Shown piece after piece: positions 8,627 to 64,000 of a stretch of DNA of 64,000 nucleotides. The notes beneath the pieces were generated by a model. That model worked only from the letters and a program-made list of their open reading frames with translations. It was not told the DNA's origin and did not search any database. Made by a program: the position numbers and the translations under genes. The stretch is from a virus (Duplodnaviria; Heunggongvirae; Uroviricota; Caudoviricetes): the IMG/VR virus record IMGVR_UViG_2541047712_000002; one strand, 5' to 3'. Within the stretch, counting starts at the first letter, position 1. Each line of letters begins with the position of its first letter.

Positions 8627-9964
8627 TTAGTTGAAATCCAAAGAATCAAGTTCTGCTTTAAATTTATCGACAATTTTCTCAACTTCAACAACAATTTCAT
8701 CAATCACCTTTTCTTTGTGTTGATTAGAGTTGAGTGCTAAATAGGCATTTTCTAACTTATACCTAGACAGACTATTTTTAATCTCATCAGCGAATCTATT
8801 GGTGAAACCATTGGTTAACAGAATACTTCTCTCTCGGGGGGAAATAGGATACTTATCGTTGAGTTTTATTAGCCTCTTTAAATGTTTTTCATCCTTGATC
8901 ACCCTCACTTTATTACCTGCGATTCTAAGCTCCCAGCCTATAAAACCAGGTAACAAAGAGTTGAACTCAGCTACTTTATCGGCTGCATTTTCCATCCTCA
9001 GCTCAATGCTGTTTCGCATATGCATAGGTAGGTCATTAAATCTTTGAAGCAAATGTTGTCGGCAGGGGTTGTTGTAAGACCACAGAATTGCGAACGTAGC
9101 CCTTAAATGACGGTATCTTGAATCGATTTTAGGGGGCTCACGACCTCGAACCATTTCTTCAACATAAAACTCTACATCTTTTCGGTATTCGTTATCAAAT
9201 ATCACAGCAGCATAAGAGTCCAAATAATGAACTTTCGATATTGCTTCTTCAAAAAAAAGTTGGCCTTCGAAGAAGTTATACTTGCTTAGCAGGCTGTAAA
9301 GTCTCTTTGCGTCATAGGTTTTATTAGTGTCAATATTAAGGCCGAATGTAGCTATCAGCAGGCTTACATTAGGACTAATGCTGTTGCGCAGCTGTTCTAT
9401 GTAAGCTCTCTTTTCATAATCGGCTGATGACGGCGAATAGAAGTCTTTATCTAAATAATCAAGAATTAAAACTATGTGGTTAATATATTTAATGTAAACG
9501 GAGTTTTTGGTTACATGGTAATAAATAGCCTTGATGAGATTCATTCCCAGTTTTGCATTAAGTTCCCTATCATCCTGCAAGGTCTTGTTAACATCCTCAA
9601 GTAATCTATTATGCTGTTCAAGTAATATGCCGTACCATTCCTTAAAAGAGGCTTTTTTCATTTCAAGGAGTGAAGCTGCCGTCAGCCTAGTGGCCCTCAT
9701 TGCTGCCTTTGCACTATGCCTTGCCTCGTAAGCGGCCCATGCTGTGGCGAAAAATGCAAGTGAAGTGGCAAGTGTACCTATGACCTCTACGTTTTCCTTG
9801 ACGGTATCCCAGAAAATAATCATCACTGTCCCAAGTATGAGGATTAACAAAACAGGCATTTTATCAGTGTCTTTGGTTAATTTTGAAACTGAATGATACC
9901 TAATCGACCATACCATTTCAGCTAGTTTAAAGCTGTCTTGCCGGTTCTGGTGCGTCAACCTCAC
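8627..9964 (-). CDS. membrane-anchored hypothetical protein (AT-rich orphan)
   Basis: 445-aa ORF on opposite strand to all neighbours; two predicted N-terminal TM helices then a ~360-aa domain; flanked by terminator hairpins. Confidence 0.6.
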   Translation of the reverse strand: MRLTHQNRQDSFKLAEMVWSIRYHSVSKLTKDTDKMPVLLILILGTVMIIFWDTVKENVEVIGTLATSLAFFATAWAAYEARHSAKAAMRATRLTAASLLEMKKASFKEWYGILLEQHNRLLEDVNKTLQDDRELNAKLGMNLIKAIYYHVTKNSVYIKYINHIVLILDYLDKDFYSPSSADYEKRAYIEQLRNSISPNVSLLIATFGLNIDTNKTYDAKRLYSLLSKYNFFEGQLFFEEAISKVHYLDSYAAVIFDNEYRKDVEFYVEEMVRGREPPKIDSRYRHLRATFAILWSYNNPCRQHLLQRFNDLPMHMRNSIELRMENAADKVAEFNSLLPGFIGWELRIAGNKVRVIKDEKHLKRLIKLNDKYPISPRERSILLTNGFTNRFADEIKNSLSRYKLENAYLALNSNQHKEKVIDEIVVEVEKIVDKFKAELDSLDFN

Positions 9965-11932: not shown

Positions 11933-12574
11933 ATGAAAAAGCTGACTCTTATTGCAACGTTAATGGCATCTGCTATGTCATTCTCATCTCACGCTGCTAC
12001 AACATCAGCAAGCGTGAATATTACCGGCTCGATCGTTCCATCTGCATGTGCAATTAGCGCCAGTGCAAATGGAGGTACTATTGACTTTGGGAAAATCCTT
12101 TCATCAGAACTTGGTGAGCAGGGTGTTACACGTAAGGCAAAGAACGATACTCTTACTATTACGTGTGATAAAGATACTACGGCCGTAGTAAAAGTTAGTG
12201 GAAGCAATGGTGTAGATGGCAACACTTATAATTCAGATAAAGACTTCGTTAAAATTGCTGTGCAATTTACCGACGTAAATGTCACTGGCGGTAATGCTAC
12301 AAATAAATTCCTCGTATCTAACGCAGCATCTGTAGATTTAGATAATCTGACGGCAGCAGGTTTTACCACCGCAGCAGGAAATAAACCGTTATTCCCGTTC
12401 AATGGAAACTATCTCGCCGTTGCTGATACAAACAATAGCGTTGGTACATTTAAGACATTGACTGCAAATTATAGCGTCAGCGCGGTAGTGCAAAACGCTT
12501 CTGCTAAACGAGCTCTTACCCAAGGTGAACAAACCTTCGGTGGCGCAGTTACATTCGAACTGAACTATCTATAA
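11933..12574 (+). CDS. fimbrial major subunit (chaperone-usher pilin)
   Basis: signal peptide MKKLTLIATLMASAMSFSSHA, Cys pair, C-terminal donor-strand-like ...FGGAVTFELNYL. Confidence 0.8.
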   Translation: MKKLTLIATLMASAMSFSSHAATTSASVNITGSIVPSACAISASANGGTIDFGKILSSELGEQGVTRKAKNDTLTITCDKDTTAVVKVSGSNGVDGNTYNSDKDFVKIAVQFTDVNVTGGNATNKFLVSNAASVDLDNLTAAGFTTAAGNKPLFPFNGNYLAVADTNNSVGTFKTLTANYSVSAVVQNASAKRALTQGEQTFGGAVTFELNYL

Positions 12575-12626: not shown

Positions 12627-13295
12627 ATGATCAAAAGAATATTTCTACCTATATTAATGAGCATTCCATGTTCAGTATATGCTTTAGGAATGCAACCTGA
12701 AACAACCGTTTTAATATTTAACGAAGAGAAGAATGAAGCTTCTATTTCTGTTAAGAATACAAACAGTGTGCCAAGCCTACTTCAAACAAAAATTGTGGAT
12801 ATAGGGGAAGCTGAAAATGTTCTAGTATTATCTTCACCATCAATAGTTAAAATAGAACCAGGAGAGTCTCAAATAGTAAGATTCTTTTTGAAAAAGAATT
12901 CTGATTTTGATACTCAGATACTTAAGAGAGTAAGATTTTTAGGTGTGCCTGCAAAGCAAGAAAGCAACAAAGAGAATTCATCTTTAACTTTTACAGTAGG
13001 TCAAAGTATCCCTCTTCTGATAAACCCTGTGGGGCTAAAAGTTGATCGAGAACCATGGAAACACTTAACGTATAGTTTCGATGGAAGAAATATTATTATT
13101 TCCAACCCATCTAAATATATCGTTAGAATGTATCCTGAAGTTAAAGTAAATGGAAAAAAAATAAAAGTCGAGCAGTCATATATTACCCCTAGAACAAAGC
13201 TGACCATTAAGTATGAGAGACCGCCATCTGAAATAACAATTGTACCAGTTGGTTTATATGGTGAACTTAGAGATGAATATCAAATCAAGAATTAA
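12627..13295 (+). CDS. periplasmic fimbrial chaperone (PapD-like)
   Basis: signal peptide, position between pilin and usher. Confidence 0.7.
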   Translation: MIKRIFLPILMSIPCSVYALGMQPETTVLIFNEEKNEASISVKNTNSVPSLLQTKIVDIGEAENVLVLSSPSIVKIEPGESQIVRFFLKKNSDFDTQILKRVRFLGVPAKQESNKENSSLTFTVGQSIPLLINPVGLKVDREPWKHLTYSFDGRNIIISNPSKYIVRMYPEVKVNGKKIKVEQSYITPRTKLTIKYERPPSEITIVPVGLYGELRDEYQIKN

Positions 13296-15669
13296 AATAT
13301 CTAAAAAATTATTAGCCGTTTTTATCTCTTTATATGTATCAAATGTTTACGCAGAAGCCTATTATTTTGATGATATAGAGTTGAAAACTATTGGATTATC
13401 AAAAGATGCAGGTAACACCTTATTAAAATCTGATAGATTTCAACCCGGGACTTATCATGTAAATATAGTTTTAAATAATTTGCCTACCAATTACCATGGA
13501 AAAATTCTTATTAACAATAACGGTTCTCCTTGTATCACAGGTTCGTTGCTGGAGGACATAGGAATAAATATAAGCAGGTTGGCATTCGACCATGACTTGT
13601 GTTTGAAAGAGTCTCATAAGGAAGGTGTCTTTTTTTATACTAAACCAAAAAGCCAGTCCATTGAAATATATGTCCCTATTAGTTATCTTTTATCTAATGA
13701 AAGAACATATAGCCATGGTGGTACTGCAGCTATTTTTAACTATAACATTCATGCATTAAATTCACGAGGAAAATTTGGTAACACGAATAACTACACAGCT
13801 TTTCTTACATCCGGATTTAACACTGACGATTGGATATTTCGTAACAAAACTATCGTAAGTTCCTATGATGGAAATAACGACATTAAAAACTCTGAATTAT
13901 TTGCCCAAAAAACTTTTGATGGGAGTGGTAAAACGCTAAAAGTCGGTAGTATAGATTCATTTGACCAGTTTTATGGTATGTCTTTGATTGGTTTAAATTT
14001 GAGTCCAGAATCAACATTTTCTAGTGGAATGTCCACTACAATAACAGGTTTTTCTAATGATGACTCTCAAGTGGAGATCTATCAGGCAGGGCAGCTTGTG
14101 TATGTAGGGCAAGTACGGGCAGGCCGTTATAATATTGACTCAGTACCTGTTCTTAACACTCAAACCCCTTTCGAGGTTGTTTTAGTTAATCAAAATGGAA
14201 CGAGATCAAAAAGAACAATAACAACTGCGGAGGCACTTATAAACTTAAAACAAAAACAAAGCAATGGCTTTTCATTGTCTATTGGAAAAGCGAACGATTT
14301 TAAAAGCTCAATATTTAATGAACCTGTTGTATTAACTACGAATTATGGTTGGGATACCCTTGGTAATTACACTTTTAGCAGTGGCAGCTTAATTACAAAT
14401 CAATTCTATTCATTGGCTGGCAGTGTTACATACTCATCATCGAGTAAGAATAATATTACTTTAACTAATTATGTGTCGTATTTAGATTTCAAAGATAATT
14501 TGAATAAAAAACGTATTGGAAACAGTTCAAGCATAACTCTTTCAAATCAATTTTACGACAATGTTAAAATGACGAACGCTTTTATTTATAGAACAAGTGG
14601 CTATAGAGGGATTGAAGATTTAAGCTCAGATGATTTCTGGAATTATAAATGGCAACAAACTAATAGTATATTTGCATCGTTGAAAAGTTTTGGCACCTTT
14701 GGTCTTACATATTCATTGAATGAGAGAAGTGGTCATCGTGAAAACAGCTACGGTGTGTCATGGGGAACAAACATCTATAAAGCTTATTTGAGCACAAGCA
14801 TTCAAAAGCAGCGTGTAAAATATAAAGATGATTATTCTAATGAAACTAGGTTTTATGCCCAGCTATCAATTCCTTTATCCAATAACCAAGGGATAAACTC
14901 GTCATATTCTTCTGGCAAAAAATGGAGTCGGACTGCTGTTGACTATCGGCAATATAATAGTAACACATTTAACTATGGCCTCGGTTATGCAAATGAGCAA
15001 TATGCTTCCACATCTATCAATGCAGGTTACATAGAGGCATCTAAAACATTCAGGACAACTCATGTTGGAGCAAGATACAATTTTAACCAAAACTATAAAT
15101 CACTAGCAAGTTATGCAAGCGGTGGATTACTGATAAATAATAATGCAATCACTTTATCGCCATATGAAATTGGTGACACCTTTGCCTTGATAAGAGTTGG
15201 AAATTATCCCGGTATAGAATTACAAACACCAAACGGTAAGGTATGGACTGATAATCGAGGTAATGCTGTAGCCTCTAACTTGAATCCATATACTGCAAAC
15301 CAAATTCAAGTAGTACCAGAAAACTCACCTCGTAATATAGATGTAATGCAAGGCATAAAAAAGTCGACTCCATTTAAAGGAAGCGTTAATCAAATAAGAT
15401 TTGATGCTAAGAAAGTCCAGAGATTATTGGTATATGCAGTAGACGCGCTGAATAAACCTTTACCTTACAACGCCGAAGTAGTAAATCTGGATGATAACAC
15501 AATTATGGGATTTGTAGATCATGATGGTTTAATATTCTTCAGTGACATACCATCAAAAGCTGTTAAGGTAAATATCACACAAAATCAAAGTTGCATAATT
15601 GATTTTAGCAAGTATAAAAAAACAGAAGTTAATGAAATATTTAGCACGACACATCTAACTTGTAAATAA
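13273..15669 (+). CDS. outer-membrane fimbrial usher
   Basis: ~800 aa, signal peptide, N-terminal YYFDD...FQPGTYHVNIVLNN usher motif, C-terminal Cys pair; start taken at ATG 13273 rather than the overlapping track start 13240. Confidence 0.8.
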   Translation: MNIKSRIKISKKLLAVFISLYVSNVYAEAYYFDDIELKTIGLSKDAGNTLLKSDRFQPGTYHVNIVLNNLPTNYHGKILINNNGSPCITGSLLEDIGINISRLAFDHDLCLKESHKEGVFFYTKPKSQSIEIYVPISYLLSNERTYSHGGTAAIFNYNIHALNSRGKFGNTNNYTAFLTSGFNTDDWIFRNKTIVSSYDGNNDIKNSELFAQKTFDGSGKTLKVGSIDSFDQFYGMSLIGLNLSPESTFSSGMSTTITGFSNDDSQVEIYQAGQLVYVGQVRAGRYNIDSVPVLNTQTPFEVVLVNQNGTRSKRTITTAEALINLKQKQSNGFSLSIGKANDFKSSIFNEPVVLTTNYGWDTLGNYTFSSGSLITNQFYSLAGSVTYSSSSKNNITLTNYVSYLDFKDNLNKKRIGNSSSITLSNQFYDNVKMTNAFIYRTSGYRGIEDLSSDDFWNYKWQQTNSIFASLKSFGTFGLTYSLNERSGHRENSYGVSWGTNIYKAYLSTSIQKQRVKYKDDYSNETRFYAQLSIPLSNNQGINSSYSSGKKWSRTAVDYRQYNSNTFNYGLGYANEQYASTSINAGYIEASKTFRTTHVGARYNFNQNYKSLASYASGGLLINNNAITLSPYEIGDTFALIRVGNYPGIELQTPNGKVWTDNRGNAVASNLNPYTANQIQVVPENSPRNIDVMQGIKKSTPFKGSVNQIRFDAKKVQRLLVYAVDALNKPLPYNAEVVNLDDNTIMGFVDHDGLIFFSDIPSKAVKVNITQNQSCIIDFSKYKKTEVNEIFSTTHLTCK

Positions 15670-15683
15670 GCTTTGAGGATCTC

Positions 15684-16199
15684 ATGTTTAAATTTTTTAT
15701 ATTGACATGCTCTTTGTTTTTATGCACAACCTGTTTTGCAGCAGAGTGTTCTATAACCAGCTCGCCAAATAATATATCTTTAGGTGATTTTTCCTTTGGT
15801 TCTCTAACTAAGGAAAAGGTAGCAGATCGATATTATTACACCATGAAAAAAGATATTATGATTAGTGCAAAATGTAGGAATGCATCTAACATATCATTTG
15901 TCTATTCTGCACCATATAACGGTATGGGTTTTACAATTGGTGGTGTTGATGGTTATTATACAATCAAAGTAAATAAGTTTATAGTTAATGGGGTTAGTAG
16001 GGAAGTTAGGTATGTAGACACTAACAAGAAAGTTGATTTTATTTTACCTGAGACCGCAGTTCACACTGCGATTGGAGGTGAAGATTATAGCGTTGACGTT
16101 AACTTAATGCTAAACATAGCTTTCTATTTTAATCCAAATACATCCTTAGGCAATTACAGTATTTTTACAACTGGCGAGTTTCATCTCCAAGCTCTTTAA
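15684..16199 (+). CDS. fimbrial minor subunit / putative tip adhesin
   Basis: signal peptide MFKFFILTCSLFLCTTCFA, last gene of the chaperone-usher operon. Confidence 0.6.
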   Translation: MFKFFILTCSLFLCTTCFAAECSITSSPNNISLGDFSFGSLTKEKVADRYYYTMKKDIMISAKCRNASNISFVYSAPYNGMGFTIGGVDGYYTIKVNKFIVNGVSREVRYVDTNKKVDFILPETAVHTAIGGEDYSVDVNLMLNIAFYFNPNTSLGNYSIFTTGEFHLQAL

Positions 16200-52842: not shown

Positions 52843-53436
52843 ATGATTGCAGCCGAAAAAATCAAACAGCGAAAGCGCGACAACTCTCTTCGTGACCTCT
52901 GGAGAACACCTGATTGGCTGTTTTCTGCCATTCAACGTTATCTTGGAGTGACATTTGATGTTGACGTTGCCTGCAACAAGGACAACGCAAAGCTGCCTAA
53001 TTTCATAGGCATTGAGCGTGATGCTTTGAAATCTGAATGGGGACAGCCAGGTACAATTGCCTTCCTCAATCCACCCTACTCCAAAATCTCCCCCTGGATT
53101 GATGCTGCTATACGTGAGCAGGCTCGCGGAGTTACAACAGTGATGCTAATTCCTCAATCCCTCGATACAAAGTGGTATGAGCGTGCAACAGAGTATGCGA
53201 ATGAGACGATTATTCTGTCTGGTGGCCGCGTAGCGTTTGTCGAGCCTGACGTCAATTTGGGTCAGGTAGAAGTAAACATCAACCCCGGTGGCAGTATGCT
53301 CGTTGTTTTTCGAGGATTCTGTCAGGACGCTGGGCACTCTATAAGCAAGATCCCTTTGGACGTCATGAAAAGTCTGGGAGGGTATGATCCTGCGAATGTG
53401 ATCAGGAAAAAAAGACCATCAAAGAAGGCTGCTTAG
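52843..53436 (+). CDS. DNA N6-adenine methyltransferase (small phage Dam-like)
   Basis: NPPY catalytic motif (AFLNPPYSK), N-terminal LWRTPDWLF pattern, 197 aa. Confidence 0.65.
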   Translation: MIAAEKIKQRKRDNSLRDLWRTPDWLFSAIQRYLGVTFDVDVACNKDNAKLPNFIGIERDALKSEWGQPGTIAFLNPPYSKISPWIDAAIREQARGVTTVMLIPQSLDTKWYERATEYANETIILSGGRVAFVEPDVNLGQVEVNINPGGSMLVVFRGFCQDAGHSISKIPLDVMKSLGGYDPANVIRKKRPSKKAA

Positions 53437-54380: not shown

Positions 54381-54434
54381 CGTGTGCGCACGCGCGAGGA
54401 AAAAATCGGCGCGGCGCTTGATTCAGGAGTTTAT

Positions 54435-55028
54435 ATGACGACGAAGACACCAGCCCGATCGCAAGCAAAAACTCGCAAAAAAGCCAAAAACAAAAAATCT
54501 CCCCGCACCAATCCCACAACGCCTGTCGTAGAGTTCAATCCCCAGCTCAAAACCGTGAAAATCTTTAGTGATGGCTCTTGCCTTAAAAATCCGGGTGGCC
54601 CGGGCGGTTACGGTATCGTTCTCCAGTATCGTGGTGAGGAACGCGAGTTCTCAGATGGTTTTCATAGCACCACCAATAACCGCATGGAGATGATGGGCGC
54701 ACTTATCGGGCTGGAGCGTTTGAAATATCCATGCAACGTTATTTTGTACTCTGATAGCCAGTATCTGAAAAACGGCATGACACAGTGGATGAAATGGTGG
54801 AAACGTAATGGATGGATGACTTCTGATAAAAAACCGGTAAAGAATGTTGATCTGTGGAAACGTCTGGATGAGGCCGCAAGTCGACATAATGTTCGCTGGA
54901 AGTGGGTTAAAGGTCACGCCGGGCATCGTGAAAATGAAATATGTGATCGACTCGCGAAGATCGCAGCTTTTTCAGCAGCAGATATGCCTCACAAGAAAGA
55001 TATTGGTTTTGTTTATAACAAGTGGTAA
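54435..55028 (+). CDS. rnhA: ribonuclease HI with N-terminal basic extension
   Basis: [20 protein letters not shown]..., [31 protein letters not shown] match RNase HI; about 40 Lys/Arg/Thr/Pro-rich residues precede the core; start taken at ATG 54435. Confidence 0.85.
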
Positions 55029-55959: not shown

Positions 55960-56385
55960 ATGTTAGGTTTCTTCAAAAAGAAAACTCGTAAAGCAGTTAT
56001 CGAAGTCAAAAAAATGGAGAACCGTGATGCGGTTGAGGCCACCGTGTGGGGCGCGTACATGATCTCCTATGCCGACGGCACATGTGACGCAAAAGAAATT
56101 GCCATTCTTGAGAAGACAATTGCAGCTCTGCCTGCGTTTTCTCCGTTTGCTGGTGAAATTGCCCAAATGAGCGCCAATATCCGAGCTCGTTACGAAGCGT
56201 CCCCTCGTTCTGCTAATGCACAGGCTATTCGTGAGCTGTCTGATATTGCGGGTACTCCAGAGGCGGTCGATGTTCTGTGTCTGTGCCTTGATATTGCCGA
56301 TCAGGATGGCATTGGTGAACAAGAAGAGCAGGCACTGAAAAAGATCGCCCAGGCGCTTCAGTTGTCACTGGATGCTTATCTCTAA
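55960..56385 (+). CDS. TerB-like domain protein, tentative
   Basis: YMISYADGTCDAKEIAILEKTIAAL and LCLCLDIADQDGIGEQEEQALKKIAQALQL repeat pattern typical of TerB. Confidence 0.5.
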   Translation: MLGFFKKKTRKAVIEVKKMENRDAVEATVWGAYMISYADGTCDAKEIAILEKTIAALPAFSPFAGEIAQMSANIRARYEASPRSANAQAIRELSDIAGTPEAVDVLCLCLDIADQDGIGEQEEQALKKIAQALQLSLDAYL

Positions 56386-56546
56386 TGCTTGAGAGATTCC
56401 GGCTTGTGATCGTCATTGCTCTTCTGGTGATGGCGGTGTTGGTGGATTTTACGGGAAAGATGATGTCTGTCATTTCTGATGGCGTCCTCATTGGTTTGGC
56501 GATCTACTTCGCTTATCCGCTAGTCCGTAAAGCAACGTGTTAATGA
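56385..56546 (+). CDS. small membrane protein (53 aa, not in ORF track)
   Basis: TAATG overlap with the TerB-like stop; hydrophobic MLERFRLVIVIALLVMAVLV... Confidence 0.3.
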
Positions 56547-58205: not shown

Positions 58206-58308
58206 CCAATGCCTTTATTTGAAGGATTGCCTGTTTATTTCTATTTAGTACCTTTTCATTTTTGAAATAATTGCACCATTAAACAAATCACTTCTTAATG
58301 GTGCAATT

Positions 58309-59994
58309 ATGAATACAGCCCTTTCCATCATCGACGATGCCAACTCAAACACTGCTATCGACTATCGGCAGGAAATGAACGTCATCCACGAAATTGTGGC
58401 CGAGTGCGAGAAAGAGATCGCCTTCATGTATCAGGTTCACGACTTCGTTTATGGCGACGAACGCCACAACATGATTAATCGCCTGCTGAGACTAAACCAT
58501 CGACCAGATGAAGATCGCTCGCGTTTAAATCGAGGTTGGTTGGATAAAGTCGATCTGGAATGGGTGAAACAGAATATTTGGGCCGAGTACTGGAGGAAGG
58601 TCACGGACATGACTAACGTTTTGCTGATCATGCCAGCTTCCCGTCGAGATGAGTGGCGCGAGCAGTTTATAGAGGGCAAACAGGAAGTCATCAAAACTGA
58701 CAGAACCGGCTACCAGATGAAGGTTAAAGAGTTCGTTGGTGTACCGGAGTTCAAAGCAGAAACGGTCATACCCACGATGCTTAATTTGCTGAATGACAGG
58801 CACAAATATCTCTCTGAGCGCGTGTATGGCTTGTTTAAGGCGCTGAGTCCTGCGCACAAGACAAATAAGACAAACGGTTTCAGCGAGCGTCTGATAATCG
58901 CTGACTGCATTTCTGATTTCTGGCGGGACAGCGTTAGCGTGAACTATCGCAAAGAGGACTACATCGACGATCTGCGTGTCTTGCTTCATTTCTTCGCGCA
59001 CAAAGAATTTATTACCATCAACCGCACTGCTGAGGTGCTATCAGCTGCGTATCGGGCAAACGACTGCCAGACCGGTGACTGGATGAACGTCGATGGAAAT
59101 CTGATGCGCGTGAAGATGTTCAAGAACGGCAACGTTCACTTTGAAATACATCCTGACGTGGCCTGGAAGTTGAATGAGGTGCTGGCTTACAGTATGCCTG
59201 CTGCAATTCCCGCGCCATGCCGAACTGCGCCAAAAACACGGGCACCAAAGCAGTTCGGGTTAATCCAGAAGACGATCTCCGTGCCGGTTCGCACTGCGCT
59301 TCGTGACGGGCGATTGAGCAAAGACAAAGGCGTATGGTACTTCTCTGATTCAGCTCTCCAGAAGTCGCAGGTGGAAGAGCTTGAGCGCACACTGAGCTTC
59401 ATTGGCGGCGTGCAGGAGAAAAAGCACTGGCAGTTCCCGTATGAGATCGGCCATACGCTAAATACGATTGTGGCTACCGGATTAATACCGGATACAAAAT
59501 CACACCAGTTCTACCCTACCCCACGCTTGATTGCTGAGTACGTTGCCAGAGCCACTGAATTGAAGTCTGGTGAGAAGCTGCTGGAGCCTCAAGCCGGACG
59601 TGGGGATCTTCTGGCCTATATCAACGCCGATCTGGAAGATGTTACCTGCATAGAAATCGCACCTCTCTTCGCTGATATCCTGCGCGGAAAAGGGTATACG
59701 AACACGATTTGCTGCGACTTCATAAAGTGGTCTGAGGACAACGTAGGTTATCAGTTCGACAAAATCGTTATGAACCCGCCGTACTCGCTTGGTCGTCATA
59801 GAGAGCACACGCTGGCTGCGCTGGGGCATCTGAAAGTCGGCGGGCGTCTTGTAGCAGTATTGCCGGGCACTGCGCCAATACTGGACTGGATGACGATGGA
59901 TAATTACGTTTATGCCAGAGGGAAGTCGTTTACCAACGAGTTTGAAGACACAGGGATCACAGTCAGCGTATACGTTTTCAAACGCGTTAAATGA
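58309..59994 (+). CDS. DNA methyltransferase (NPPY type) with large N-terminal domain of unknown function
   Basis: C-terminal motif I LLEPQAGRGDLL and motif IV VMNPPY; about 390 N-terminal residues unassigned. Confidence 0.6.
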   Translation: MNTALSIIDDANSNTAIDYRQEMNVIHEIVAECEKEIAFMYQVHDFVYGDERHNMINRLLRLNHRPDEDRSRLNRGWLDKVDLEWVKQNIWAEYWRKVTDMTNVLLIMPASRRDEWREQFIEGKQEVIKTDRTGYQMKVKEFVGVPEFKAETVIPTMLNLLNDRHKYLSERVYGLFKALSPAHKTNKTNGFSERLIIADCISDFWRDSVSVNYRKEDYIDDLRVLLHFFAHKEFITINRTAEVLSAAYRANDCQTGDWMNVDGNLMRVKMFKNGNVHFEIHPDVAWKLNEVLAYSMPAAIPAPCRTAPKTRAPKQFGLIQKTISVPVRTALRDGRLSKDKGVWYFSDSALQKSQVEELERTLSFIGGVQEKKHWQFPYEIGHTLNTIVATGLIPDTKSHQFYPTPRLIAEYVARATELKSGEKLLEPQAGRGDLLAYINADLEDVTCIEIAPLFADILRGKGYTNTICCDFIKWSEDNVGYQFDKIVMNPPYSLGRHREHTLAALGHLKVGGRLVAVLPGTAPILDWMTMDNYVYARGKSFTNEFEDTGITVSVYVFKRVK

Positions 59995-61326: not shown

Positions 61327-61716
61327 ATGGGCTTCCCTTCTCCTGCGGCGGATTATGCTGAGAGCCGTATTTCTCTTGATCAGCAGATAATTAGACATCC
61401 TTCAGCGACCTACTTCATGAGGGCAGCTGATAGTCATCATCGTGAGGGAATATTACAGGGTGCATTGCTGGTGGTCGATTCCTCACTTACCCCGGTTGAT
61501 GGTTCTCTGCTTGTATGCGCTCTGGATGGGGAATATCGCGTAAAAAGATACCGGAAGTACCCACGTCAGCATCTGGAGGATTTAAGAACCGGTAAGAAGG
61601 AAGCATTGCCAAAGGATGACGATGGATGCACGGGCAGCAATGCCGTGTTTGGTGTGATCACTCACATTATCAACGACGCAAGAAGTGGCGAGTTTGATGA
61701 TTGTCCCGTGATGTAG
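61327..61716 (+). CDS. UmuD'-like S24 peptidase-family protein lacking the N-terminal arm
   Basis: starts MGFPSPAADY, matching UmuD from Gly25 onward (after the Cys24-Gly25 cleavage site); Ser and Lys of the S24 dyad retained; in-frame TGA immediately upstream excludes a longer N-terminus. Confidence 0.7.
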   Translation: MGFPSPAADYAESRISLDQQIIRHPSATYFMRAADSHHREGILQGALLVVDSSLTPVDGSLLVCALDGEYRVKRYRKYPRQHLEDLRTGKKEALPKDDDGCTGSNAVFGVITHIINDARSGEFDDCPVM

Positions 61717-61753: not shown

Positions 61754-62854
61754 TCACACTGCGCGGAATGCGATTTCGCCAGGTATTACTTCACCTTGCC
61801 AATACATTTGGGCAGCAACGCGATCTGCGAGGTCACGATAAATAGCCGTAAATTCGCTATCTGGACGACTAATAACGGTTGGTGTTCCGTTATCCAGATC
61901 TTCACGAAGAGAGATATGAAGTGGCATTTGGCCTAACAACTGCGTGTTGTATTTCTCGGCCAGTTTCTGTGCGCCACCGGTGCCAAAAATTGGCTCGTGA
62001 TGACCGCAGTTACTGCAAATATGCACACTCATGTTTTCGACGATACCCAGTACCGGCACTTCGACTTTTTCGAACATCACAATGCCTTTCTTCGCATCGA
62101 TCAGCGCGATGTCTTGCGGCGTAGTTACCACAACCGCACCAGTTACAGGAATGTTCTGCGCCAGTGTCAATTGAATGTCACCGGTGCCTGGCGGCATGTC
62201 GAGCACCAGATAATCCAGATCCGGCCATAAGGTTTCTTGCAACATTTGCATCAACGCCTTGCTCGCCATCGGGCCACGCCACACCATCGCGTTGTCGTCA
62301 GTGACCAGATAACCAATTGAGTTGGTTGCCAGGCCATGAGACATGATAGGTGCCATGTGAGTGCCGTCCGGTGAGGTTGGACGTTGGTTTTCCGCACCCA
62401 GCATGGTTGGAATTGATGGACCGTAGATATCGGCATCCAAAATACCGACTTTCGCACCTTCAGCAGCCAACGCCAGTGCCAAGTTTACTGCTGTGGACGA
62501 TTTGCCTACACCGCCCTTGCCTGAGCTGACGGCGATAATGTTCTTAACGCCATTAATGCCTGGTTGGTTTTTGACGCGCTTAAGCGTGGCAATGTTGTAC
62601 GACAGCTTCCAGTCAATAGCCTTTGCGCCAGTGATACGGAGCAGATCACCACTACATTGCTCTTTCAGGTCTTCAAAAGGCTTATTCCACACGAAAGGCA
62701 TGATTAGTTCGACATGCAGTGTGTCATCCATCAACGCAACATGGTGTAACGCTTTAAGCGTAGTCAGGTTGTGTTTCAGGGTTGGGTGCTGAAAATTAGC
62801 CAGCGTACCGGCTACCATTGCTCTCAGGGCATCCGGCGATTTGGACTCGCTCAT
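61754..62854 (-). CDS. apbC: Fe-S cluster carrier ATPase Mrp/ApbC
   Basis: near-identical to enterobacterial Mrp across its length (P-loop KGGVGKSS, CSNC motif). Confidence 0.9.
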   Translation of the reverse strand: MSESKSPDALRAMVAGTLANFQHPTLKHNLTTLKALHHVALMDDTLHVELIMPFVWNKPFEDLKEQCSGDLLRITGAKAIDWKLSYNIATLKRVKNQPGINGVKNIIAVSSGKGGVGKSSTAVNLALALAAEGAKVGILDADIYGPSIPTMLGAENQRPTSPDGTHMAPIMSHGLATNSIGYLVTDDNAMVWRGPMASKALMQMLQETLWPDLDYLVLDMPPGTGDIQLTLAQNIPVTGAVVVTTPQDIALIDAKKGIVMFEKVEVPVLGIVENMSVHICSNCGHHEPIFGTGGAQKLAEKYNTQLLGQMPLHISLREDLDNGTPTVISRPDSEFTAIYRDLADRVAAQMYWQGEVIPGEIAFRAV

Positions 62855-63011: not shown

Positions 63012-64000
63012 ATGACCCAAGTCGCGAAGAAAATTCTGGTGACGTGCGCGCTGCCGTACGCTAACGGCTCAATCCACCTCGGCCATATGCTGGAGCACAT
63101 CCAGGCTGATGTCTGGGTTCGTTACCAGCGAATGCGCGGCCACGAGGTTAATTTCATCTGTGCCGACGATGCCCACGGTACGCCGATCATGCTGAAAGCA
63201 CAGCAGCTTGGTATCACACCGGAGCAGATGATTGGCGAAATGAGTCAGGAACACCAGACTGATTTCGCAGGCTTTAATATCAGCTACGACAACTATCACT
63301 CGACGCACAGCGAAGAGAACCGTCAGTTGTCTGAGCTTATCTATACTCGCCTGAAAGAGAACGGTTTTATTAAAAACCGCACCATCTCTCAGTTGTACGA
63401 CCCGGAAAAAGGTATGTTTCTGCCGGATCGTTTTGTAAAAGGCACCTGCCCGAAATGTAAAGCGCCAGATCAATACGGCGATAACTGTGAAGTCTGCGGC
63501 GCAACATATAGCCCGACTGAATTGATCGAGCCGAAATCGGTGGTTTCTGGCGCTACCCCGGTAATGCGTGATTCCGAACACTTCTTCTTTGATCTGCCTT
63601 CTTTCAGCGAAATGTTGCAGGCATGGACCCGCAGCGGCGCGTTGCAGGAGCAGGTGGCGAACAAAATGCAGGAATGGTTTGAATCCGGCCTGCAACAGTG
63701 GGATATCTCCCGAGATGCGCCTTACTTCGGTTTTGAAATTCCGAACGCGCCGGGCAAATATTTCTACGTCTGGCTGGACGCGCCGATTGGCTACATGGGT
63801 TCCTTCAAGAATCTGTGCGACAAGCGCGGCGATACCACCAGCTTCGATGAATACTGGAAGAAAGACTCCACCGCCGAGCTGTACCACTTCATCGGTAAAG
63901 ATATTGTTTACTTCCACAGCCTGTTCTGGCCTGCCATGCTGGAAGGCAGCAACTTCCGCAAGCCGACCAACCTGTTTGTTCACGGCTATGTGACGGTGAA
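63012..64000 (+). CDS. metG: methionyl-tRNA synthetase, 5' portion (runs off the window)
   Basis: [35 protein letters not shown] with HIGH motif; absent from the ORF track because no stop lies in the window. Confidence 0.9.

Follow-up and report, generated by a model that had tools for sequence, protein, structure and literature searches.

A putative orphan DNA methyltransferase of an SSU5-family phage-plasmid with a DUF4942 module in place of a target-recognition domain

Here, we analysed the gene at positions 58309..59994 on the plus strand of a 64,000-nucleotide stretch of viral DNA (IMG/VR record IMGVR_UViG_2541047712_000002), which is called the window below. The gene starts with ATG and encodes a protein of 561 amino acids (aa), and its limits in a program-made list of open reading frames (ORFs) are exactly those given in the initial annotation of this DNA. 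The explanation that we prefer, with our confidence at about even, is that the gene encodes an orphan S-adenosylmethionine (SAM)-dependent DNA methyltransferase, most probably an N6-adenine enzyme, of an SSU5-type phage-plasmid, and that the protein is built of two modules, an N-terminal DUF4942 unit and a C-terminal catalytic core, each of which also occurs alone on mobile elements.

Judged by sequence identity, the window is part of an SSU5-family phage-plasmid and is non-chromosomal, because E. coli plasmids of ~105-115 kb are 99% identical to a 6-kb segment that surrounds the gene, and because the 561-aa protein has a counterpart with 100% aa identity in Escherichia phage CMS-2020a, a phage-plasmid of the SSU5 family, and is 92% identical to gp095 of Salmonella phage SSU5, which is labelled 'DNA methyltransferase'. 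The gene and the parts of its product were delimited as follows (all on the plus strand):

58309..59994 (+): full DUF4942-methyltransferase fusion gene, stop codon at 59992-59994
58309..58554 (+): poorly conserved helices, aa 1-82; cross-clade identity 11%, only M1 near-invariant
58555..59223 (+): conserved YdiA/YgfB-like unit, aa 83-305; cross-clade identity 38%
58726-59193 (+): Pfam DUF4942 (PF13708) match, aa 140-295; 74 bits, cut-off 25
59224..59490 (+): linker and small basic alpha/beta sub-domain, aa 306-394; identity 24%, isoelectric point (pI) 9.8
59491..59991 (+): minimal class-I SAM-dependent amino-methyltransferase core, aa 395-561
59506-59523 (+): motif X, QFYPTP, aa 400-405
59578-59613 (+): motif I, LLEPQAGRGDLL, aa 424-435 (EPQAGRG, aa 426-432)
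within 59644-59658 (+): motif II, acidic residue E449
within 59713-59721 (+): motif III, D470-F471
59767-59784 (+): motif IV, VMNPPY, aa 487-492 (NPPY, aa 489-492)

The C-terminal core carries conserved amino-methyltransferase motifs

The motifs of the core stand in the order X-I-II-III-IV in a single polypeptide, and the order was the same when the protein was aligned to M.TaqI and EcoR124 HsdM, with QFYPTP falling on the '..FFTP'/'ETP' stretch upstream of motif I in both enzymes. Motif I (LLEPQAGRGDLL) and VMNPPY had already been noticed in the C-terminal ~170 aa, and this observation was confirmed by an alignment of 21 homologues (33-91% identity), in which the key residues of motifs I and IV were invariant or near-invariant. 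N489, P490 and P491 were present in 21/21 homologues with Y or F at position 492, and E449 of motif II was invariant as well. The structural model predicts a class-I Rossmann methyltransferase fold that superposes on solved gamma-type members, and places the final beta-strand at aa 551-559 of 561. Since the protein stops just past this last Rossmann beta-strand, the core has no C-terminal target-recognition domain (TRD).

Profile searches pointed in the same direction. In PADLOC, the core matched mad2 (5e-15) and MTase_II (2.8e-10), and the family profile matched EcoR124 HsdM (2e-4, with the alignment starting at profile position 351) and M.TaqI (2.5e-4) in the PDB; the single-protein and full-length-profile PDB searches returned methyltransferase-core matches only, and marginal ones. 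No Pfam methyltransferase family, including N6_Mtase, Eco57I and MTS, matched the window protein at E <= 0.01. A relative from an IncHI2 plasmid fell below the cut-offs for both MTS (22.9 against 23) and N6_Mtase (17.9 against 20.4), and two other relatives (P0201 and P0150) were slightly above that for MTS (24.5 and 25.2 against 23). With the whole protein as the query, PHROG families 15406, 11358, 10691 and 9133 were also matched, at E values from 3e-50 (9133) to 1.9e-08 (10691); the 1259-position profile of phrog_9133 covers aa 328-560 as a single block. The small basic sub-domain, which lies directly N-terminal to the catalytic core, thus travels with it.

DNA is favoured as the substrate because of these sequence-level matches and the genomic neighbours. 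Small methyltransferases with NPPY or NPPF motifs also act on RNA or on protein glutamine, such as METTL5, RsmC/RsmD and HemK, and the target of the core might likewise be an adenine (N6) or guanine (N2) of rRNA or tRNA, or a glutamine in a protein. We consider this improbable, given that the top sequence matches are DNA enzymes (mad2, MTase_II, EcoR124 HsdM and M.TaqI), that QFYPTP aligns with the stretch preceding motif I in the last two, and that the genes lie in phage early or nin regions and in plasmid leading regions, adjoining Dam, N6_N4 and C5 DNA methyltransferases. Literature searches found no report of adenine-N6 transfer in DNA by the DUF4942 fusion family.

The N-terminal unit is conserved as strongly as the core

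The N-terminal two-thirds had been described as having no recognisable motif, which proved to be wrong: Pfam DUF4942 covers aa 140-295, and PHROG 6263 ("DNA methyltransferase") covers the 561-aa protein from end to end (E = 7e-300). The accompanying term 'domain of unknown function' is literally true still. When the N-terminal sequences of 12 family members were scanned against Pfam at E <= 1, DUF4942 was found in 12/12 and was the sole consistent family. In the AlphaFold models, aa 1-16/18 have a pLDDT below 50, that is, they are modelled with low confidence or are disordered, and helices are predicted at 20-48 and 52-62; for the sub-domain at aa 306-394 the predicted secondary structure is beta-alpha-beta-beta-alpha-beta-beta-alpha.

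Cross-clade identity of the conserved unit was 38% versus 41% for the core, near-invariant positions made up ~23% of each, and the pairwise identities of the two parts correlated with r = 0.82. We then searched 1.84 billion representative proteins with a profile of aa 1-392 (E <= 0.001) and obtained 1,532 cluster representatives. Nearly all of the best 150 matches were 500-630 aa long and carried ~165 aa beyond the matched part, and the DUF4942-core architecture is therefore fixed. Short proteins matching the N-terminus alone were rejected as evidence for split genes, since those inspected were truncated or frameshifted. Because the two units are fused, co-evolve and are equally constrained, one integrated enzyme fits better than two independent activities.

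No structural relative of the N-terminal part came to light: matches of its profile in the PDB (ZorA, UDP-glucose dehydrogenase) were at the level of noise, with E = 0.08 at best, and no solved TRD resembles the unit. The part contains four invariant arginines (R164, R171, R223 and R305) and, within the unit, the invariant polar residues S180, H183, T185, N186, D221, D262, H277 and H281. Its pI is 6.6 (5.75 for stand-alone YdiA), and the idea that it is a DNA mimic is unsupported at these values.

The invariant polar residues might be read as those of an active site, either of a nuclease, as in a fused Type IIG/IIL-like restriction-modification (R-M) protein, or of another base-modification chemistry, which the initial annotation had also considered; some GenBank records for Pseudomonas and Aeromonas phages give 'RE endonuclease' as the annotation of their homologues. 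We regard a catalytic N-terminus as very improbable. The N-terminal part matched no catalytic fold or family, no N-terminal nuclease domain (PD-(D/E)xK or similar), as in Type IIG/IIL/ISP enzymes, was found in the window protein, and H183 and H281 are absent from the stand-alone DUF4942 relative described below. The 'RE endonuclease' label of some homologues has no support.

DUF4942 and the core occur as separate modules on plasmids

In PLSDB, the DUF4942 core is present on ~4,300 plasmids, of which three quarters are conjugative. A stand-alone DUF4942 protein of ~282 aa is encoded by IncI-gamma/K1, IncK2/Z and IncL/M (pOXA-48-type) plasmids, where its gene adjoins the origin of transfer (oriT)/nikA or lies in the leading region, which also holds ardA, psiA/psiB, ssb and an antirestriction gene. 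By hhalign, aa 83-303 of the window protein match aa 78-281 of the 282-aa IncI protein (probability 98.7%, E = 1.8e-16). The published leading-region family 24, described as 'uncharacterized; DUF4942', has 2,171 members with a median ORF position of 1 and T-strand orientation, and is significantly enriched in plasmid leading regions. The stand-alone proteins are thus like the window protein in being homologous to its aa 83-303, with Pfam DUF4942 in both, and in being encoded by mobile elements amid establishment and anti-defence genes. They differ in that they have ~282 aa, lack the methyltransferase core and lie at about ORF 1 from oriT, whereas in the window protein the unit is fused to the core and is encoded in the accessory region of a phage-plasmid rather than by the first ORFs after oriT.

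The IncI plasmid with the stand-alone gene has no homologue of the core anywhere on it (best tblastn E = 0.16 plasmid-wide), and the notion that it pairs YdiA with a separate copy of the core was rejected for this reason. The plasmid has a single DNA methylase by annotation, a beta-class protein of 227 aa that is of the M.EcoGIX type, with DPPY before FAGSGST. Conversely, a homologue of the core stands alone in the leading region of an IncF plasmid: this protein of 187 aa (WP_001298559, 'class I SAM-dependent methyltransferase') corresponds over its full length to aa 398-555 (hhalign probability 99.6%, E = 5e-24) and lacks the DUF4942 unit; antirestriction genes lie on one side of it and ssb/psiB on the other. 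IncHI2 plasmids carry the complete fusion (563 aa) adjoining a Dam gene. Since DUF4942 is found alone on an IncI plasmid without the core, and the core is found alone on an IncF plasmid, sequence comparison indicates that each half is an independent mobile-element module, with both halves tied to early-entry regions.

On the IncFIA plasmid pYJ6-NDM5 (locus L011, 5506-7477), a 453-aa DUF3560 gene lies directly upstream of the gene for the 187-aa minimal methyltransferase. DUF3560 was rejected as a diverged version of the N-terminal module (hhalign probability 0.4%); the two genes may represent another pairing of an accessory protein with a minimal methyltransferase.

The gene is an orphan in the window and in its relatives

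The protein had been called the second methyltransferase of the window, and this is borne out, the first being a Dam-type companion located 4.9 kb upstream:

52843..53436 (+): Dam-type companion orphan methyltransferase; PF05869 E = 5e-38, TIGR01712 E = 6e-33

The claim that it is an orphan also stood. Searches with Pfam, NCBIfam and PADLOC found no restriction endonuclease among the neighbours in the window, no hsdS-like or other R-M gene was present in the neighbourhood of the gene, and no restriction endonuclease is annotated in the equivalent region of the near-identical phage Cyrano. Likewise, no restriction partner was found in SSU5, pJN2-26, an Aeromonas lambdoid phage, a Pseudomonas phage, an IncHI2 plasmid and two prophages. 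The orphan status is assigned because no restriction enzyme lies near the gene here or in the relatives examined. When the four neighbouring proteins were scanned with PADLOC, matches appeared on the Dam-type ORF only (orphan/Type II methyltransferase models), and no other mad genes or defence systems were detected among them. Neither a standard TRD in the N-terminal part nor a nearby restriction partner, the combination that would have refuted the initial annotation, was found.

The gene sits in an accessory region with RNase H/TciA on one side and Ead/HumD on the other, and this region holds no relaxase or oriT genes. In the Aeromonas lambdoid phage, it lies in the nin region with ant and ninG as flanks, and in Variovorax and enterobacterial lambdoid prophages it is part of the early replication operon, flanked by extra orphan N6_N4 and C5 methyltransferases. 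These include an N6_N4_Mtase immediately downstream of the distant homologue in the Variovorax prophage (locus L012, 9749-10936), and, in the enterobacterial prophage (locus L014, 4948-6207 and 10221-12320), an N6_N4_Mtase together with a C5 DNA_methylase protein of 699 aa; on the IncHI2 plasmid, Dam lies beside the homologue (locus L005, 2994-3806). Such arrangements suggest multi-methyltransferase 'methylation islands' in early regions. A protective role of orphan methyltransferases in phages and leading regions is well established (PMC11541004, PMC7736820).

Comparison with characterised enzymes

The family is already catalogued, as Pfam DUF4942, PHROG 6263 and the RefSeq "DUF4942 domain-containing protein", and GenBank already labels the SSU5 protein as a putative methyltransferase. 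Literature searches found no functional data for DUF4942, the SSU5/pHCM2 methyltransferases, phage-plasmid methylomes or YdiA/YgfB. The architecture, in which a YdiA-like module of new fold replaces the TRD, is not shared by characterised methyltransferases.

The closest comparison is with gamma-type enzymes (M.TaqI, EcoR124/EcoKI HsdM, M.BseCI and CamA), with which the window protein shares the X-I-II-III-IV order, the (D/N)PP(Y/F) form of motif IV and the class-I Rossmann fold. However, sequence similarity to them is marginal (E ~2e-4) and Pfam methyltransferase thresholds are not reached, and the window protein has neither a C-terminal TRD nor an HsdS partner; the place of the TRD is taken by an extension of 390 aa at the N-terminus, whose fold is unrelated and unsolved. 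Among library profiles, the catalytic core is matched best by Mad2 of the MADS defence system and by methyltransferase domains within giant multi-domain phage proteins (PHROGs 15406, 11358, 10691 and 9133), but these matches are limited to the core, or to the core and the small sub-domain, and DUF4942 is absent from them; the mad2 match is partial, aligning aa 394-523 with positions 265-401 of a 492-position profile. A resemblance to the injected DarB-type proteins of P1 is a possibility.

M.EcoGIX and M.BceJIII are single-strand-specific orphan N6-methyladenine enzymes of leading regions, which are expressed on entry, have a relaxed SAY specificity and act in anti-restriction (Fomenkov et al. 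2020, PMC7736820). By analogy, they may serve as a functional model for the DUF4942 enzyme. They belong to another family, because they are of the beta class and have DPPY in a reverse motif order (PMC7736820), whereas motif I precedes NPPY in the window protein. Their single-strand specificity and PolI association are their own, and there is no sign of either in the DUF4942 enzyme.

Alternative roles of the N-terminal module

Given that the core seems too small for DNA recognition alone and lacks a C-terminal TRD, the N-terminal ~390 aa could be a sequence-specific TRD placed at the other end, which would make the protein an ordinary orphan Type II methyltransferase. Every family member has the N-terminal part, which co-evolves with the core, and its four invariant arginines are in keeping with such a role. 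Target recognition by this part had been proposed in the initial annotation, and in the classical sense it is now disfavoured: a sequence-reading role for the DUF4942 unit is unlikely because the unit is conserved at the level of the core, occurs alone on an IncI plasmid without the core, and has no likeness to known recognition domains. We give an N-terminal TRD a low probability. A second possibility, to which we assign a similarly low probability, is that the DUF4942 unit is an independent effector of anti-defence or establishment whose action does not involve methylation; it might, for instance, bind or block a nuclease or sensor of the host, or shield incoming DNA; the protein would then be a bifunctional, 'polyvalent' one with a separate methyltransferase activity. 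The occurrence of stand-alone DUF4942 beside oriT with ArdA, KlcA-type antirestriction genes, PsiA/B and SSB, the enrichment of the 2,171-member family in leading regions at a median ORF position of 1, and the IncI carrier plasmid without a core homologue all agree with this, as does the presence of the core by itself on an IncF plasmid and as a part of giant multi-domain proteins of phages. However, the two units stay fused in nearly all of the best 150 family members, co-evolve and are under equal constraint, which argues against separate activities. Moreover, the unit is unlike known anti-restriction proteins and DNA mimics, its pI is near neutral, the N-terminus has no match in PADLOC or the PDB, and the literature reports no phenotype of YdiA/YgfB that relates to anti-defence.

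Proposed mode of action and significance

In the explanation that we prefer, an orphan methyltransferase with an integrated DUF4942 module, synthesis of the protein would begin soon after entry or induction, and the protein would methylate the DNA of its own element, such that host restriction systems would not cut it, as the genomic context and the published precedents suggest. As a conserved accessory module, the DUF4942 unit may engage the substrate, which would be DNA that is entering or being replicated, or a host factor located on such DNA, and may keep the TRD-less core on this substrate. Direct DNA contacts may also come from the small sub-domain at aa ~320-394, which is variable and basic. 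Because the core is TRD-less, a short motif or relaxed specificity is predicted. More tentatively, and at well below even confidence, we propose that DUF4942/YdiA is a previously unrecognised module of new fold for the first minutes in a new cell, which would either bring proteins to the DNA of the element during entry or replication, or to a host factor bound there, or else neutralise a host defence.

The YdiA-like module ties a phage-plasmid protein to the most oriT-proximal gene family of leading regions. If the proposed reading is true, the fusion would be a Rosetta stone which links the 'first gene' of >2,000 leading regions to methylation-based or other anti-restriction protection. This matters since orphan methyltransferases help phages and plasmids to get past restriction, since phage-plasmids of the SSU5 type are spreading in clinical Enterobacteria, and since the family is abundant. 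Furthermore, the N-terminal module is also the domain encoded by the first gene to reach recipient cells when resistance plasmids of the IncI, IncK and IncL/M (pOXA-48-type) groups are transferred, and its function, with the fusion as a handle, could clarify an early step in plasmid and phage establishment. A compact adenine methyltransferase of relaxed specificity is a possible practical yield. If the module is only an unusual DNA-binding domain, the protein would be an ordinary orphan methyltransferase. We see the gene as a useful experimental lead rather than a surprise.

A hairpin immediately upstream of the start codon

A perfect inverted repeat precedes the gene:

58271..58306 (+): perfect 12-nt inverted repeat, TTGCACCATTAA...TTAATGGTGCAA, stopping 2 nt short of the ATG

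As RNA, 58271-58306 folds into a hairpin with a dG of -20.6 kcal/mol (z = -6.6), and the sole Shine-Dalgarno-like GGTG sits in its 3' arm. The 3' arm is kept in SSU5 and pJN2-26, and the 5' arm only partly. Because the only Shine-Dalgarno-like sequence is in the 3' arm, the hairpin is a possible candidate for a translational or operator control element. The palindrome occurs once in the window and was rejected as a repeated operator.

Other features of the window

Further genes surround the fusion gene. Positions 54384-55028 encode an RNase HI that is extended at its N-terminus, and 2 kb upstream of the 561-aa gene there are a TerB-family/P1 TciA-like gene (55960-56385) and a small TciB-like ORF, annotated in Cyrano, in the region 56385-56543. 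Downstream, a HumD-family (UmuD-like) gene at 61327-61716 is followed by the phage-plasmid's copies of two housekeeping genes, apbC and metG. The former, at 61754-62854 on the minus strand, is an iron-sulfur carrier gene, MinD-like by the Cyrano annotation, and the latter (MetRS) begins at 63069 and continues past the window end. By sequence comparison, both are cargo that is also present in relatives. A 304-aa ORF on the minus strand at 63069-63983 is probably a shadow of metG.

Towards the other end, the phage-plasmid carries a cluster of tRNA genes for Asn-GTT, Tyr-GTA and Ser-TGA at 7832-8446; the equivalent place in phage Cyrano has Asn, Thr and Ser, and hence the middle tRNA varies among close relatives. 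A block of 35% GC, the sole atypical region of the window, extends over ~8.6-16.2 kb, with the tRNA cluster on one side and the integrase gene on the other. At its edge, a 445-aa ORF (8627-9964, minus strand) had no match in Pfam, NCBIfam or PADLOC. The block also contains the following genes:

11933-12574: fimbrial subunit, low-GC insert
12627-13295: PapD-like chaperone, low-GC insert
13240-15669: usher, low-GC insert
15684-16199: further subunit-like ORF, low-GC insert

Given the fimbrial operon and zero PADLOC matches, we rejected the idea that an R-M or defence locus is hidden in this insert (8.6-16.2 kb). The chaperone-usher insert is missing from phage Cyrano, and the operon is adhesin cargo on the phage-plasmid.

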